From an uncultured Candidatus Saccharibacteria bacterium (GTDB lineage Bacteria > Patescibacteriota > Minisyncoccia > Phycocordibacterales > CAIZLB01): a stretch of 33,440 nucleotides of DNA. A program made the translations under genes and the position numbers. This document shows positions 17,933-24,507 of the stretch, piece by piece; position 1 is the first letter of the stretch, and every line of letters begins with the position of its first letter. The DNA is taken from positions 1 through 33,440 of the forward strand of contig CAZSTO010000001.1 in NCBI GenBank assembly GCA_964610005.1, read 5' to 3'. The notes beneath the pieces were generated by a model. It was not told the origin of the DNA. It did not search any database and saw nothing but the letters and a program-made list of their open reading frames with translations.

Positions 17933-17960
17933 TTGACAGATTTATCTGTTTTGTTAGAAT
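17933..17960 (+). promoter_or_regulatory. Near-consensus promoter pointing into the 3' end of MazF-like gene 1
   Basis: TTGACA (17933-17938), 16 nt, TAGAAT (17955-17960). Confidence 0.45.
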
Positions 17961-17966
17961 AAGGTC

Positions 17967-18062
17967 AATCTCTTTATGAGACACAATGGGTTATCCCACT
18001 TGCCAGGATCATAATGGTCCGGCTTAAATCATCTCCGTATAATGTCAATTATACGGTTTTGA
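17967..18062 (+). ncRNA. Candidate ~95-nt antisense RNA convergent with MazF-like gene 1
   Basis: The predicted start is about 7 nt after the -10. Internal hairpin near 18003-18022. Terminator ccgtataat (18035-18043) / attatacgg (18048-18056) plus TTTT (18057-18060) lies inside the last codons of the minus-strand CDS. Confidence 0.4.
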
Positions 18063-18457
18063 ATTTTTATGAAATCATTCATAGAAATATAACCTATATA
18101 TTTACTAAGCCTTTTTGTATCGAGTGCTCTTATCTGAGATATAATAGCTGATTGCTCAATGTCTTGTAATAATAGTTTTATATAATATTTATTATCTTTA
18201 TTTTTAGTACTTAGGGGTATACCCCAAAACATCTCGTTATTAAATTTTTTAAATATTAAAACAGGACGATGAAAGTTCTCGCCTTTACCATCTTGTTCGT
18301 ATCCGATATTTTCACCCCAAAAACACCAATAGACCTGACATTCATTAATGATTAGATTATTTCGTTTAGTTTTATTTATTATAATTTTATTTATGATCCA
18401 GGATATAAATTTTTTTGACATTAATACATCATACGATATGGGTGTTAAAATTTTCAT
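18029..18457 (-). CDS. PemK/MazF-family toxin-like protein, paralog 1, with no adjacent antitoxin ORF
   Basis: VYWCFWGENIGYEQDGKGENFHRPVLIF ... PLSTK ... SQIRALDTKRL fits the MazF fold pattern GD.W.....G.E..G.RP.l.l ... QiR..D..R. It ends at TGA. An alternative start is ATG 18421. Confidence 0.75.
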   Translation of the reverse strand: MKILTPISYDVLMSKKFISWIINKIIINKTKRNNLIINECQVYWCFWGENIGYEQDGKGENFHRPVLIFKKFNNEMFWGIPLSTKNKDNKYYIKLLLQDIEQSAIISQIRALDTKRLSKYIGYISMNDFIKIQNRIIDIIRR

Positions 18458-19785: not shown

Positions 19786-19794
19786 TGTTTTAAT
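19786..19794 (+). promoter_or_regulatory. Extended -10 box 6 nt before the ATG of MazF-like gene 2
   Basis: TG-t-TTTAAT, then tttgct, then ATG at 19801. The 19-nt string atgttttaattttgctatg recurs at 24594-24612. Confidence 0.45.
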
Positions 19795-19800
19795 TTTGCT

Positions 19801-20274
19801 ATGGAAGATTGGGAATTTATAGAAAAATATAATAAATGGAATATAAAAAAGCAAAATATACATTTTTTAGACAATAGAGATATTTACTTTAAAGAGGGTG
19901 ATATCTGGTGGTGTTCTATTGGTTTAAATATAGGTGATGAATCATATGGAAAGGGTAGGGATTTTAGAAGACCTATATTAATATTTAAAAAATTATCAAA
20001 AGATTTATGTATAGCACTACCTTTGACCTCAAAACTTAAAAAAGGGACCTGGTTTGTTGATATTATTCTAAATAATCAGTCTAGATGTGTCATGTTGTAT
20101 CAGATTCGTGTACTGAATAAAAAAAGATTTTCTATAAAGATAGGTGAAATATGTGATGACGATTTCAATAAAGTAAAAAGAAAACTCGAGAATCTATTCG
20201 AGTTTTCATTAAATCGTCACTCGACAAATGTCGAGATCGAAAGGGTTGATGCGACTCTCAACCCTCAAAGGTGA
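19801..20274 (+). CDS. PemK/MazF-family toxin-like protein, paralog 2, with no adjacent antitoxin ORF
   Basis: GDIWWCSIGLNIGDESYGKGRDFRRPILIF ... PLTSK ... YQIRVLNKKRF. It carries a 22-aa tail absent from paralog 1, encoded by hairpin-rich DNA. It ends at TGA. Confidence 0.75.
   Translation: MEDWEFIEKYNKWNIKKQNIHFLDNRDIYFKEGDIWWCSIGLNIGDESYGKGRDFRRPILIFKKLSKDLCIALPLTSKLKKGTWFVDIILNNQSRCVMLYQIRVLNKKRFSIKIGEICDDDFNKVKRKLENLFEFSLNRHSTNVEIERVDATLNPQR
20175..20272 (-). ncRNA. Candidate ~98-nt antisense RNA covering the last ~32 codons of MazF-like gene 2
   Basis: Three perfect hairpins: 20242-20265 (8 bp), 20220-20235, and 20180-20207 (10 bp). The last is followed on the minus strand by TTTTT (20175-20179). 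The predicted start coincides with the toxin stop codon. Confidence 0.5.
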
Positions 20275-20278
20275 TTAT

Positions 20279-20306
20279 ATTTTAGCAAATGGATAATCTT
20301 TGTCAA
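20279..20306 (-). promoter_or_regulatory. Near-consensus promoter of the antisense RNA
   Basis: On the minus strand: TTGACA (20306-20301), 16 nt, TAAAAT (20284-20279). Confidence 0.5.
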
Positions 20307-20309
20307 ATC

Positions 20310-20318
20310 TGTTATACT
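20310..20318 (+). promoter_or_regulatory. Extended -10 box driving the structured RNA upstream of mod
   Basis: TG-t-TATACT, placed back-to-back with the antisense-RNA promoter. Confidence 0.4.
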
Positions 20319-20324
20319 AAGCAA

Positions 20325-20456
20325 GTCGCCACAATCAAATATAAGTAACACTACAAGTGTATACCTGCAGTCGTGTATAGTGAGGGGTGCCTCGATGCAC
20401 ATGACTGCAGGCCTTGCGCTTGTATTGATTGTGGCGACCATCGGGCATCCCTTTTT
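20325..20456 (+). ncRNA. GC-rich fold-back RNA or structured 5' leader of the mod gene
   Basis: 5' gtcgccacaatcaa (20325-20338) pairs with ttgattgtggcgac (20425-20438), extendable to about 20 bp. There is an inner 9-13 bp stem cctgcagtc (20364-20372) / gactgcagg (20403-20411), an apical gagg/cctc hairpin and a T5 run at 20452-20456. Confidence 0.45.
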
Positions 20457-20501
20457 GTCGTTTAATAATTAATATAAAGGTGCTTGGTCCGATGAACATA
20501 G

Positions 20502-22184
20502 ATGTCGCCTATGTCATTAGAGGAATTAAGTAGAGAAGATCTTTTGACTCGTGTAAAAGAGTTGGAAGCTAGATTAAAGAAAAATCAAAAATATGGTTTA
20601 GTATGGGAATCTAAAGAAGAACAAGTTGTTTTAGACTGTAAAGATAAATATCCTATATTAAAGCGTGTTGAAGATAGAAGTATTAGAGGAGGTGTTGGTC
20701 CAATGAATTATTTGATTGAGGGTGATAATTATCATGCTTTGAAGATCTTGCAATATACACATAAGGGTAAGATTGATGTGATTTATATAGATCCTCCGTA
20801 TAATACAGGGAATAAGGATTTTATCTATAATGATGATTTTGTTGATAAAGAAGATGGTTATAGACACAGTAAATGGCTGTCATTTATGGAGAGAAGGTTG
20901 AAGTTGGCAAAAGAATTATTGAAGGATACGGGGGTTATATTTATAAGTATAGATGATAATGAACAAGCACAGTTGAAATTATTGTGTGATGGGGTTTTTG
21001 GCGAGAGGAATTTTATAAGCTTATTTCCTAGATTGACAGTTAAAGGAGGTAAAACACAAAGCTTATTTAATACAAGTAACATAGATTATGTATATGTTTA
21101 TTCTAAGGATATTAATAAATCTCGTTTTAATAAATTATTAGTTAAAGATGATAATGCTTTTAAATATAAAGATAAATATTTTGATGAGAGAGGCTTTTAT
21201 CATACTAAACAATCTTTAGATAGTGTTAGTTTAGGGTATGTAAAATCTTTAGATTATCCAATAAATCATGAAGGTGTAACCTATTATCCTGGTGGTGTTA
21301 TTGAAAATAATGGATATAGATGGACTTGGTCTAAAGATAAGTTGGATTTCGCAATAAAAAATGATTTTGTGGAATTTAAAAATGGAAGAATATGGCCTAA
21401 AAAATATTTATTAGCTAGTATTGAAAAAGATAAAAATGGTTATTATATTAAATATGAAGATAGGGTAAAAAATTATTCACAATTAACTTTTATTGAAAAT
21501 CTATATTCAAATACAAATGGAACAAATACCTTAAGAGAGTTAGATGTTACGGATTTTAATAATGCAAAACCTGTTGATTTAATAAAAACAATTTGTGAAA
21601 TGTCTGGATCTAAATCCTCCATCATCCTCGATTTCTTCGCTGGCTCCGGGACCACAGGACATGCCGTACTTGAACTCAATAAACAAGATGGTGGTAATCG
21701 TCAATTCATACTTGTAACAAACAATGGTGACGAAAAGAGTGAGCATAAGATCGCTGAAAATATAACTTATGAAAGATTAAAAAGAGTCATGAGGGGTTAC
21801 ACAAACAAGAAAGGTGAAAAGGTAGAAGGTCTGGGTGGTAATCTTGATTATATGCGTTGTGAGTTTATAGATAAGATTGATCATCAAGATAGTATGAGGC
21901 TCAAGATCACAGAAAATTGTCTAGATACAATAATGTTTAAAGAGGGTAATGATAAAATCATAAAAAACACAGATGATTATACTATCACCAGTAGTACTGT
22001 TCTAAATATGGATAATATGACAGCTATATATAAAACCTGGAATGATGAAAATATAGATAAATTTAAAAAAGATATAGAGAAAATAAATAGACCGGTAAAC
22101 GTGTATTTAAATCCATTCATTGATAAAGATGAATTTAATTATTTGGATAAGGTTAATATTAAAAATATTCAAGACATAATATAA
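20502..22184 (+). CDS. mod: Type III restriction-modification methyltransferase (Mod)
   Basis: DPPYNTG (motif IV) lies N-terminal to FFAGSGTTGHAV (motif I), with a variable region between. The res gene follows after 4 nt. Confidence 0.85.
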   Translation: MSPMSLEELSREDLLTRVKELEARLKKNQKYGLVWESKEEQVVLDCKDKYPILKRVEDRSIRGGVGPMNYLIEGDNYHALKILQYTHKGKIDVIYIDPPYNTGNKDFIYNDDFVDKEDGYRHSKWLSFMERRLKLAKELLKDTGVIFISIDDNEQAQLKLLCDGVFGERNFISLFPRLTVKGGKTQSLFNTSNIDYVYVYSKDINKSRFNKLLVKDDNAFKYKDKYFDERGFYHTKQSLDSVSLGYVKSLDYPINHEGVTYYPGGVIENNGYRWTWSKDKLDFAIKNDFVEFKNGRIWPKKYLLASIEKDKNGYYIKYEDRVKNYSQLTFIENLYSNTNGTNTLRELDVTDFNNAKPVDLIKTICEMSGSKSSIILDFFAGSGTTGHAVLELNKQDGGNRQFILVTNNGDEKSEHKIAENITYERLKRVMRGYTNKKGEKVEGLGGNLDYMRCEFIDKIDHQDSMRLKITENCLDTIMFKEGNDKIIKNTDDYTITSSTVLNMDNMTAIYKTWNDENIDKFKKDIEKINRPVNVYLNPFIDKDEFNYLDKVNIKNIQDII

Positions 22185-22188
22185 ATCT

Positions 22189-24507
22189 ATGAAATTTACA
22201 CTTAAAAATTATCAAGAAAAAGCTGTTAATTCTCTAAAAGACAGAGTTTATAATTTTCTTTCATTTAATGATTCAGAAAAGAGAATAATAACCTTTAAAG
22301 CACCTACAGGTTCAGGAAAAACTGTTATGATGGCTTCTTTTATAGAGAATTTGATAGAATCAAATAAAGATTTAAAGAATATAGATTTTACATTTTTATG
22401 GTTATCTATAGGTACAGGTGATTTACATAATCAGAGTAAAAAGTCTCTAGAGAAAAATATCGGTGATAATATAAAAATACAAAGTATAGATGAGGTATAT
22501 GGTACATAAAAAAATGAATTATTAAAGGATTCGGTAATGGTTTCTAATTGGGAAAAAGTGTGGACCAAAAATAAAAAAACAGGCGATTGGAAAAGTATTG
22601 CCATGAGAGATGGTGATTATATAAATTTTCGAGAAATATTAAATAATACAAATAGTATTGGTAGAAAGATTGTATTGATAATAGATGAATCATACATAGC
22701 TACCGATGCTGCTAGAGGTAGAGAGATTGTTGATTTGATAAATCCTAATATCGTAATAGAAGTATCGGCTACTCCGAATCTAAGGTTATCAGGTAAAGAT
22801 ATTATAGATAATAAAGGTTGGATTGAAGAGATAAATCCACAAGATGTTATAGATGAAGAAATGATAAAGGATCAAATAATAGTTAATTCTGATTTTGTTT
22901 TATTTAAAAAAGATGACAGCGATCAAACTGTCTTAAGAAGTGCTATTAATAAACGTGATGAATTGGTTAATCTCTATAAAGAATATAATATAAATGTAAA
23001 CCCACTTTTATTAATACAATTACCAAATAGCAGAGATGGTGAATCTGCTATGGAAATGGTCTTGGATTTTTTAGAGAAAGAAAAAGGGGTAAAACAAGGC
23101 GATGATAGATTAGCTATATGGTTAAGTGAAAAAGATATTAGTGATAGAAATATAGATAACATAAGTAAAAATAATTCCAAACAAGAATATCTCATATTTA
23201 AACAAGCCATAGCAACGGGTTGGGATTGTCCCAGGGCTCAAATATTATTAAAATTCAGAGAAGTTAAAAGTGATGTATTCGAAATACAAGTTTTAGGTAG
23301 GATATTAAGGACTCCTGAGCAAAAGCATTATTCTATAGAAGCTCTAAATAAGGCTTATGTGTATGTGAATTCTGATGAAATCAGTTTTAAAATAGAAGAT
23401 TATAATGCAAAGATTTTGGGTGATTTACCATCTATAAGAAAAAGGGATTATAAAGATATAAAATTGAATTCTTTTTATCAAGAACGTAAAGACTATCAAG
23501 ATATAAAATCAGAATTTAAAAAGGTATTATCGGATTGCTTTATAGATAAGTTGAATTTGATAGAAGGGGACTATAATAAAAATATAAAAAAATTAGAAAA
23601 AGAAGGTTGGAAATTTGAATTGGAAGATATATATCATAAAGTTATTTCAGATATTAGTGTTGATGTAAAAACAATAGATCAATATTATCTGCCCGTAGAA
23701 GATGATACAAAAGAAACTTTGAATATAAGTGATAGACAAATAGAGATAATATCTAGAAATATATTTAAAAAGCTGATGAACCCTTTTACTAATATTGCCA
23801 GGTCTATACCAGTGATGAATCTTGCCTGGTATGCTTTCTGTCGAAATATTTTTGGGGAAAATCTAATGAAAAAAGATTTTATAAGCTCTCAGACTTTACT
23901 TATAATGAATTTGCAAAAGGTTCAGCAGATATTTATAGAGGCTGTAGAAAAATATTCGAAAATCAAAAAGAAAAAACTTCAAGCAGAAAGTGAACATTAT
24001 AGTATATTTGAAATACCTAAGATTGATTATTTTAATTCTGAATTAGTTGATAATATAAATTATGATAAGTATATTTTAGATAATTGTTATTTGTATAAAG
24101 ATAGATCTAAACCAGAAAGAGATTTTGAGAATTTGTTGAATAATTCCAAAAAAGTAAAATGGTGGTATAAAAACGGCGTAAATCGTGATGATTATTTTGG
24201 TATTAAATATGAATATGATAATAAAGACGGTAAAGAAACTATTCACACCTTTTATCCTGATTATGTGGTTAAATTTAATGATGAAAAAATAGGTATATTT
24301 GAAACAAAGGCAGAGTCAGATCCAGATGCTCACACTAAAACGAAGGTAAAAGCTGAGGAATTATACAAATATATACAAAAAGAGAATAAAATAGGTAAAA
24401 AACTTCTTGGGGGAATTGTTGTATTTAAGGAAAAAGAAAATAAATGGAGAATACAAAATAAAAAAGAATATTCACTAACAGAAGGCTGGGAAGAGTTAAT
24501 TTTTTAA
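22189..24507 (+). pseudogene. res: Type III restriction enzyme Res subunit interrupted by an in-frame TAA
   Basis: KAPTGSGKT (helicase motif I), LIIDESY (motif II-like) and a C-terminal PD-(D/E)xK-like YPDYVV...GIFETKA. TAA at 22507-22509 is in the same frame as both halves (106 + 656 aa). Confidence 0.75.

Follow-up and report, generated by a model that had tools for sequence, protein, structure and literature searches.

A predicted structured small RNA convergent with MazF/PemK-like toxin genes of Patescibacteria: a candidate RNA antitoxin

Introduction

In the type I toxin–antitoxin (TA) pairs TxpA/RatA, BsrG/SR4, SprG/SprF and YonT/as-YonT, the antitoxin is an RNA, encoded convergently to the toxin gene and overlapping its 3′ end (PMC8594479). 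In type III systems, the toxin has a MazF/Kid-like core fold and is held inactive by a co-evolving structured RNA made in excess; the antitoxin is encoded as an array of tandem repeats that precedes the toxin gene in the same operon and under the same promoter, with a terminator between the two, and the RNA is processed by the toxin (PMC5086642). Here, we analyze a stretch of 33,440 nucleotides (nt) from contig CAZSTO010000001.1 of an uncultured Candidatus Saccharibacteria bacterium, hereafter the window (G+C content 30.6%, standard bacterial code). In this window, a predicted small RNA (sRNA) gene of about 100 nt converges on the 3′ end of a MazF/PemK-like toxin gene, termed paralog 2. An earlier sequence-only reading had proposed a dedicated antisense RNA gene at this place. 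Comparison with relatives points to a module that is very probably an RNA-antitoxin TA system with a pairing not described for the MazF toxin family, as far as an incomplete coverage of the literature allows.

The locus resembles the 3′-overlapping type I pairs in having a small RNA with its own strong promoter, read convergently over the 3′ end of the toxin mRNA and open reading frame (ORF). An RNA complementary to the toxin mRNA, a mark of type I, is what the layout predicts here, with about 100 nt of perfect complementarity to the toxin 3′ end and a layout conserved in 64 hits. However, type I toxins are small hydrophobic peptides, usually under 60 aa, whereas paralog 2 encodes a 157-aa soluble MazF-fold protein (130–170 aa in relatives). 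In the sRNA, moreover, an unpaired motif is invariant and the helices covary among divergent toxins, beyond anything antisense action alone needs. Neither ‘MazF’ nor ‘PemK’ occurs in the text of the paper on T1TAdb and its 24 families (PMC8594479). The type III systems ToxIN, CptIN, TenpIN and AbiQ/antiQ share with this locus the pairing of an RNase of MazF-like fold with a structured RNA, although binding between the two is a proposal here. Unlike a type III antitoxin, the sRNA is single-copy, downstream, on the opposite strand and under its own promoter, two tandem cores being found in one metagenome-assembled genome (MAG) only. The toxin is PemK/MazF by Pfam and fold, not ToxN, AbiQ, CptN or TenpN. 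Since the toxin family differs and no upstream repeat array is present, the module is no member of a type III family.

SymE/SymR and RalR/RalA are type I pairs in which a nuclease toxin is under antisense RNA; SymE is AbrB-like, RalR is a DNase, and their RNAs pair at the 5′ end or within the coding region. The locus differs from both in its unrelated toxin fold and in its conserved, structured, 3′-convergent RNA. MazF/PemK toxins are among the best-studied families and, to our knowledge, are regarded as strictly type II; every way we know of neutralizing MazF-fold RNases is at the protein level. Paralog 2 is like MazEF and PemIK (Kis–Kid) in toxin family, fold and catalytic Arg and Thr/Ser motifs. 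Unlike them, it has no MazE/PemI-type gene beside it, either in the window or in about 60 related loci, and it carries an extra N-terminal helix. Because a protein antitoxin is absent, we do not count it as a type II system. Antisense RNA at a mazF locus has a precedent in aMEF of Escherichia coli mazEF, which tunes a type II operon retaining MazE and stimulates expression (PMC8749433). The two are alike in their association with a mazF locus; aMEF does not stand in for an antitoxin, and the sRNA here is a candidate sole antitoxin. Our literature search turned up neither a MazF/PemK toxin paired with an RNA antitoxin nor a description of this module in Patescibacteria; the literature coverage is incomplete and an earlier description is possible.

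The convergent sRNA gene in the window

The toxin gene and the sRNA gene are arranged as follows.

19801–20274, plus strand: PemK/MazF-fold toxin gene, paralog 2; 157 aa, TGA stop at 20272–20274, Pfam PF02452 at E = 7.8e-12
20279–20306, minus strand: sRNA promoter; −35 TTGACA (20306–20301), 16-nt spacer ending in TGC (extended −10), −10 TAAAAT (20284–20279)
20173–20272, minus strand: predicted sRNA transcript, ~100 nt; first base A20272, across from the toxin stop codon
20241–20266, minus strand: P1 hairpin, 9 bp (20266–20258/20249–20241), a lengthened form of the family GGG/CCC stem
20236–20239, minus strand: invariant 5′ side of the internal loop that adjoins the P2 base, C-G-A-U (64 related RNAs)
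20220–20235, minus strand: P2 hairpin, CUCGAC-AUUU-GUCGAG, 6 bp (20235–20230/20225–20220)
20213–20219, minus strand: invariant 3′ side of that internal loop, U-G-A-C-G-A-U, with the invariant A three bases past UGA
20175–20207, minus strand: intrinsic terminator of the sRNA; 10-bp stem (20207–20198/20189–20180), 8-nt loop, TTTTT at 20179–20175

The promoter at 20306–20279, the hairpins and the terminator, whose U run follows the stem on the minus strand only, all lie where the sequence-only reading had placed them. The start it had put near 20272, on the toxin TGA, corresponds to A20272, 7 nt past the −10 box. The promoter fits 11/12 consensus positions. Under loose criteria, promoter-like sites are no more frequent in the region than expected (16 against 17.7). 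The strict motif TTGACA-N13-TGN-TANAAT occurs twice in the 33,440 nt against an expectation of 0.01, a count reached in 0/100 shuffles; one copy drives the sRNA of paralog 2 and the other stands convergent to the second toxin gene of the window, paralog 1. Terminator-like sites number 5 in the region, with 0.9 expected, and the sRNA terminator lies inside the toxin codons for K-R-K-L-E-N-L-F-E-F; the last ~33 toxin codons are complementary to the predicted sRNA. All real genes to the right of paralog 2 are on the plus strand, which bears out the earlier remark that no minus-strand gene there could be served by this terminator. Folding of the 100-nt minus-strand RNA (20272–20173), a check that the same reading had suggested, gave −36.3 kcal/mol and z = −5.16. 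By promoter and terminator, the sRNA would be transcribed from the minus strand.

The RNA is a structured class absent from Rfam. Rfam 15 has no match at gathering score in the window, and a scan of the 13 loci with the best-scoring sRNAs gave none in the sRNA region. Over the sRNA region, permissive scans (E up to 10) gave nothing above chance level; the top match there, sraA on the terminator hairpin, scored 21 bits, with a gathering score of 56. We built our own covariance model, R1, from a clean 27-sequence MAFFT seed alignment (A3) of related loci. In the window, R1 matches 20274–20210 at 27 bits, with E = 2e-6 over the 81 sources described below and E = 1.1e-7 in the window alone with filters off; E-values of this model are rough, following a short calibration. 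With filters off, this is the sole window match below E = 0.01, and the next best reaches 12.8 bits (E = 0.088).

Conservation of the sRNA unit across relatives

Relatives of the toxin were collected in two ways. A protein search gave 52 clusters, mostly unnamed or labeled MazF or PemK, and a scan of GTDB representative genomes detected 352 relatives. The window and the 80 best loci out of these 352, almost all of them from Patescibacteria MAGs, form the 81 sources used here. Viral contigs held two distant relatives only, neither with this sRNA. A locus identical to that of the window is present in the runs SRR6837583 and SRR6837570.

From the VKEKLE codons on, the DNA of nearly all 80 loci has one nucleotide architecture. 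Read opposite to the toxin, the unit consists of TTGACA, a spacer of 16–18 nt, (TGn)TATAAT, ~7 nt, and then ACUUUU-GGG..CCC (P1). P1 is followed by AYCGAU, a variable P2 stem, UGAYNAUUU, and a strong hairpin with a U run inside the toxin KEKLExLLEL codons. R1 yields 65 matches over the 81 sources. In 64 cases, the match lies antisense to the toxin and directly against its 3′ end; the remaining one is weak and on the plus strand (E = 0.37). A promoter with at least 9/12 positions stands at a fixed distance from the core in 53/64 hits, the −35 box reading TTGAC[A/T/G] in 48/64 related loci, and a long hairpin with a U run begins 0–4 nt past the core in ~40 of 64.

The two core helices covary. 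On the MAFFT alignment of 40 cores, RNAalifold found P2 unaided, with compensatory changes at 6/6 pairs. The seed A3 and RNAalifold are independent of the R1 fit. In the 27-sequence seed, 97.8% of P1 and P2 cells are paired, and the covariation score is 0.593, compared with 0.143 when shuffled and at most 0.181 when slid. The 65-row alignment (A4), which was fitted to R1 and is thus biased towards structure, gives 97.9% paired cells and a score of 0.647, against 0.161 shuffled and at most 0.148 slid. In related RNAs, 99.2% of P2 cells are paired; for P1 the family value is 95.7%, with GC-to-CG and GC-to-AU exchanges. Mutual information ranks 5/6 P2 pairs first and recovers one P1 pair; over the alignment, it shows no pairing beyond P1 and P2, and none between core and terminator. 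An additional helix or pseudoknot was considered and rejected, since mutual information supports P1 and P2 only and a pairing of the P1 loop with the tail was inconsistent by eye. A test for compensatory changes in orthologous loci, set beforehand, thus came out positive, with double changes at every P2 pair.

The mismatches tell which strand is selected. The helices contain 24 G·U or U·G cells and 1 A·C or C·A cell, so the helices are maintained on the antisense strand and not on the toxin mRNA. The antisense (minus) strand is the functional strand. With a placed promoter, a placed terminator and covariation on the transcribed strand, the locus has the marks of a bacterial sRNA gene, and the dedicated antisense RNA gene of about 100 nt proposed for the toxin 3′ end is upheld by these lines of evidence, the transcript itself being predicted.

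Covariation extends to the terminator, which the toxin encodes at the same time. In the window and at the homologous codons of 35 loci, the conserved protein motif V-K-E-K-L-E-x-L-L-E-L is encoded by the sRNA terminator, GTAAAAGAAAAACTCGAG...CTCGAG being the complement of the U run and stem. Over 35 loci, 99.1% of the terminator stem is paired, five pairs are doubly changed, and many G·U pairs would read A·C on the toxin strand. Exchanges such as CUCGAG/CUCGAG to CUCAAG/CUUGAG or CUCCAG/CUGGAG cost the protein an E-to-K or E-to-Q change. Protein changes thus accompany the compensatory stem changes, and the terminator stretch is therefore under both protein and RNA selection.

Seven unpaired bases around P2 are essentially invariant: G-A-U on its 5′ side (G in 64/64, A in 62/64 and U in 57/64 related RNAs), and U-G-A on its 3′ side together with an A three positions on (U 64/65, G 65/65, A 64/65 and the later A 65/65). 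They are kept between toxins with only 35–40% identity, and most loci do not code for protein in this region; the motif and the covarying helices together span toxins that are ~35–75% identical. The pyrimidines flanking the loop covary, C/U with U/C. The YGAU/UGAY loop could form U·U, A·G and G·A pairs stacked on P2. From its sequence pattern, it would resemble a k-turn or a box C/D tandem G·A motif: CCC-AYC-GAU-(P2)-UGA fits the bulged and non-bulged k-turn strands, although only the P1 hairpin could then supply the canonical helix. Tandem G·A and U·U pairs on a helix typically offer a platform for protein recognition.

In two loci of a single MAG, one transcription unit downstream of the toxin holds two sRNA cores in tandem (L079 403–553 and L036 4376–4495). 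A doubled core of this kind brings to mind type III antitoxins with their repeat arrays.

Linkage to the toxin and the search for a protein antitoxin

The sRNA is near-exclusively linked to the toxin gene. An RNA-first pattern scan of metagenomes gave 120 exact pattern matches, mostly chance, of which 14 passed the covariance model. Eleven of the 14 have a convergent PemK ORF, one is cut by the contig end, and two are orphan RNAs (L103 9618–9670 and L114 982–1034) that face no convergent toxin gene; the L103 orphan adjoins a second, intact toxin carrying its own sRNA of another class. In the opposite direction, each toxin-first locus inspected by eye carries some sRNA. Orphan sRNAs in the absence of orphan toxins are the pattern predicted by a TA pair.

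The sequence-only reading had also noted a MazF/PemK-like toxin with no MazE-like ORF, and this is borne out. None flanks paralog 2, the gene upstream of it being hisS, read from the other strand. In about 60 related loci, a conserved ORF for a protein antitoxin was likewise not found: the neighbors are unrelated genes of 40–1083 aa on either strand, and the few small ORFs upstream of related toxins have no mutual similarity.

The toxin gene and its C-terminal tail

Paralog 2 has PF02452 (PemK_toxin) as its sole Pfam match up to E = 1. A profile search against the PDB identified Bacillus subtilis EndoA/MazF (E = 1.6e-8), and the top 50 Foldseek matches are all MazF, with no ToxN among them. 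The catalytic Arg-Pro and Thr/Ser motifs of MazF align in the family, with R57-P58 and LPLTSK conserved. AlphaFold2 (AF2) predicts a confident MazF core and a predicted local distance difference test (pLDDT) score below 50 from about residue 138. The family has an extra N-terminal helix bearing invariant W13, N14 and K17, which canonical MazF does not have. An NCBIfam scan showed nothing beyond a sub-threshold MazF match, and a PADLOC scan for known defense systems gave no match. The product would thus be a MazF-type RNase toxin.

Expression signals of the toxin gene are read from sequence.

19786–19794, plus strand: putative extended −10 box of the toxin gene, TGTTTTAAT, ending 6 nt before the ATG

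A TAnnnT hexamer stands at the same offset, its end exactly 6 nt short of the ATG, in 24/60 related loci, 15 of which also have the upstream TG; other offsets have a background of ~2 each. Shine–Dalgarno sequences are not apparent in the window or in the 60 related loci. A box ending 6 nt before the ATG makes the toxin mRNA probably leaderless, with no 5′ untranslated region to regulate. At the other end, an intrinsic terminator on the toxin strand lies beyond the sRNA gene in 8/62 loci, with none there in 54/62. With toxin-strand terminators this rare, the toxin transcript probably runs through the full complement of the sRNA and has no 3′ end of its own before it.

The 22-aa tail of paralog 2, said to be missing from paralog 1, is indeed absent from that protein, which is 38% identical. 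In an alignment of toxin relatives, the tail looked conserved (N-H/R-H-P..IEG.NPK). However, some relatives end right after LLELS and others read HKSSPDRSRDRKS, which is the same DNA, AAATCATCACCC..., in another frame; the same tail nucleotides are read as NHHP or KSSP. In 52 loci, the toxin stops before the RNA core or at its 3′ tail in 32, inside it in 5 (in two frames) and beyond it in 15, and compensatory stem changes alter the peptide, e.g., from ST..VE to PA..AG. Judged from these sequences, residues 138–157 are a translated by-product, the complement of the sRNA gene, and not a conserved peptide. The alternative envisaged earlier, a tail kept as protein while the stems are lost, came out reversed: the stems are kept, and stop and frame vary. 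Varying stop and frame, together with the predicted disorder, rule out a conserved peptide or an intramolecular antitoxin. An alternative code with TGA read-through was likewise discarded. Code 11 leaves the long ORFs unbroken, and reading TGA through under code 4 or 25 fuses none of them; TGA thus acts as a true stop in the window.

Paralog 1 and other sRNA classes

The second toxin gene of the window has the mirror image of this layout.

18029–18457, minus strand: PemK/MazF-fold paralog 1; 142 aa, Pfam E = 1.6e-9
17933–18066, plus strand: convergent sRNA gene of paralog 1; promoter 17933–17960, RNA ~17967–18066, terminator 18035–18056 followed by a U run

The promoter is identical in form and the terminator again lies inside the last codons of the toxin. 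The RNA, ~100 nt long with a fold z of −5.16, belongs to a divergent sequence class that has no GA loop and is unmatched by R1. Toxin subclades missed by R1 likewise carry other sRNAs of the same layout, promoter type and position (L046, L051, L060, L061, L063, L067, L069–L071, L074, L077, L080 and L103 10180–10260). Their shapes include AAAUGG-hairpin-UCCGAGA-long stem-UUUCG-U run, AAAUGGCUUCGGCC-UCGCC-stem and AAAUGGCUUCGGCC-UCCGAGA-stem-UUUCG. The several convergent sRNA shapes make the module a superfamily that comprises several classes of RNA.

Proposed mechanism and rival explanations

We consider it probable that the sRNA is the antitoxin of the MazF-like toxin, in a two-gene toxin/RNA-antitoxin module. 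The toxin would be a MazF/PemK-fold endoribonuclease made from a probably leaderless mRNA with a weak promoter. Its partner would be the ~100-nt convergent sRNA, expressed from a near-consensus extended −10 promoter and ending in the last codons of the toxin, with a short 5′ tail, P1, P2 closed by the invariant YGAU/UGAY internal loop, and the terminator. Control could operate at two levels. At the first, convergent transcription (collision) and an RNA duplex at the 3′ end of the toxin mRNA would limit toxin synthesis, as in type I systems; the sRNA is the exact complement of the toxin 3′ end and 54/62 loci have no toxin-strand terminator, from which such a limit on synthesis would follow. At the second, the invariant loop on its P1/P2 scaffold would be a recognition surface, most probably for the toxin, which would be held inactive as in type III systems. 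If the supply of sRNA ceased, e.g., by a transcription shut-off, a stable RNase would be set free. We favor this dual model because antisense action leaves the invariant loop unexplained, because type III offers a precedent and because tandem cores exist. If the sRNA is the antitoxin, a contribution of direct protein recognition is about evenly poised, and action by antisense pairing only is rather doubtful. The full proposition, that Patescibacteria MazF/PemK toxins are neutralized by direct binding of a single-copy convergent sRNA whose tandem-GA loop is the recognition surface, is put forward tentatively.

Several points weigh against this interpretation. The plus strand of the sRNA region folds as well as the minus strand (z = −5.2); the window alone therefore cannot decide the strand, and it is the comparative data that do. 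Expression of the sRNA is predicted, and toxicity and RNase activity are taken from homology. All the loci stem from MAGs or metagenomes; toxin-first sampling brought a bias, and the RNA-first search, with 14 hits, offers a small sample. The 65-row alignment has the bias noted above. The GA loop is confined to one sRNA class, and there is therefore no single universal protein-binding motif. Moreover, an antitoxin that acts purely by binding protein has no need of a strictly conserved convergent overlap.

The explanation nearest to that of the sequence-only reading is a pure type I-like cis-antisense antitoxin that acts only by pairing with the toxin mRNA 3′ end, through duplex cleavage or transcriptional interference. 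The loop would then serve RNA stability, RNase recruitment or a first kissing contact, and not toxin binding. We regard both this mode of action and this role of the loop as unlikely. Every locus and every sRNA class has the convergent 3′ overlap with a terminator in the toxin coding sequence, the toxin mRNA probably extends over the sRNA complement in the 54/62 loci with no intrinsic terminator on that strand, and a leaderless mRNA leaves only its 3′ end as target. TxpA/RatA, BsrG/SR4 and SprG/SprF show that a 3′-overlap layout works (PMC8594479). Against it stand the seven unpaired bases, invariant between toxins only 35–40% identical though outside the coding sequence in most loci, since pairing in cis does not depend on sequence conservation. 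Antisense action would also have no use for a core duplicated in tandem. The neutralizations of MazF-fold RNases known to us, moreover, all act on the protein. Of the type I-like control by antisense RNA that the sequence-only reading had put forward, the layout thus stands, and pure antisense action as a full account does not, as it leaves the invariant bases unexplained. A partnership outside TA biology is improbable: here the MazF-like protein would be a processing or partner enzyme of the sRNA in a ribonucleoprotein, or the sRNA would have its own target and be co-inherited. Linkage and covariation do show partnership and not antagonism, two sRNA copies are orphans, and the conserved N-terminal helix (W13, N14, K17) is foreign to canonical MazF. 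Yet the protein has the catalytic motifs and fold of MazF toxins, the strong antitoxin and weak toxin promoters fit TA logic, and two paralogous modules in a 33-kb window, with neighbors varying by locus, are typical of mobile TA cassettes.

Two further explanations concern the nature of the RNA itself. A structured domain with invariant junction bases directly before an intrinsic terminator could be an antisense riboswitch or attenuator, in which P1, loop and P2 sense a ligand or factor, the terminator is the expression platform and the output is read-through across the toxin gene. This is very improbable, given that the terminator starts 0–4 nt past the core, that no alternative core–terminator pairing and hence no anti-terminator is apparent, and that the other sRNA classes have no such loop. 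Finally, there might be no RNA gene, the conservation arising from a toxin C-terminal peptide, TGA read-through or chance hairpins in AT-rich DNA. In its favor, 15/52 relatives have coding sequence right through the core, with a shared frame in 14 that yields the recurrent NHHP..IEG.NPK tail, and under code 4 or 25 the ORF would extend to 20472. It is nevertheless already refuted by the covariation, the G·U bias, which marks an RNA of the opposite strand, and the stop positions, before the core in 32/52 loci and inside it in 5. The peptide, altered by compensatory changes, is also predicted to be disordered, and code 11 fits all long ORFs.

Significance

In dozens of species at the least, a conserved, covarying sRNA gene is locked to the toxin 3′ end. 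In genome annotation, these genes of Patescibacteria go under ‘type II toxin’ though no antitoxin gene is present, and a linked sRNA would explain the orphan toxins. The module would add a new structured RNA class and a natural case for the evolution of RNA antitoxins on MazF-fold RNases, with a bearing on how types I, II and III are related. The terminator in the VKEKLExLLEL codons is a clean example of one DNA stretch under protein and RNA selection. If direct binding holds, a type I layout would be joined to a type III mechanism, and the module would be a missing link between type II MazF and type III ToxN. The module would also point to a compact unit of defense or addiction in genome-reduced lineages of the candidate phyla radiation. 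Given the very strong sRNA promoter and the apparently leaderless toxin mRNA, it could sense transcription shut-off, as in abortive infection, in a phylum with few CRISPR systems.

Neighboring features of the window

The paralog 2 module adjoins a type III restriction–modification (R-M) system. Just upstream of its mod gene lies a G+C-rich, rod-like hairpin of 114 nt (20325–20438), which on the plus strand folds at −69.9 kcal/mol (z = −7.3) and has no Rfam match. Within 20290–20460, it has its own promoter-like site (TGGATA-17-TATACT, 20290–20318), which overlaps that of the sRNA in back-to-back orientation; a U run lies at 20452–20456. The rod hairpin and mod are kept together in one related locus (L001), where changes in the 5′ arm keep pairing only as U·G on the plus strand. 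The GGCGAC of its 3′ arm could alternatively pair with GUCGCC at the mod start codon (20503–20508). The rod hairpin may be a separate plus-strand RNA, a leader of mod or the 3′ end of the toxin mRNA. Further downstream, the res gene of the R-M system is split into a 106-aa ResIII N-terminal ORF (22189–22509) and a 656-aa ORF (22537–24507), both on the plus strand; the split could reflect a frameshift, a pseudogene or a phase-variable gene.

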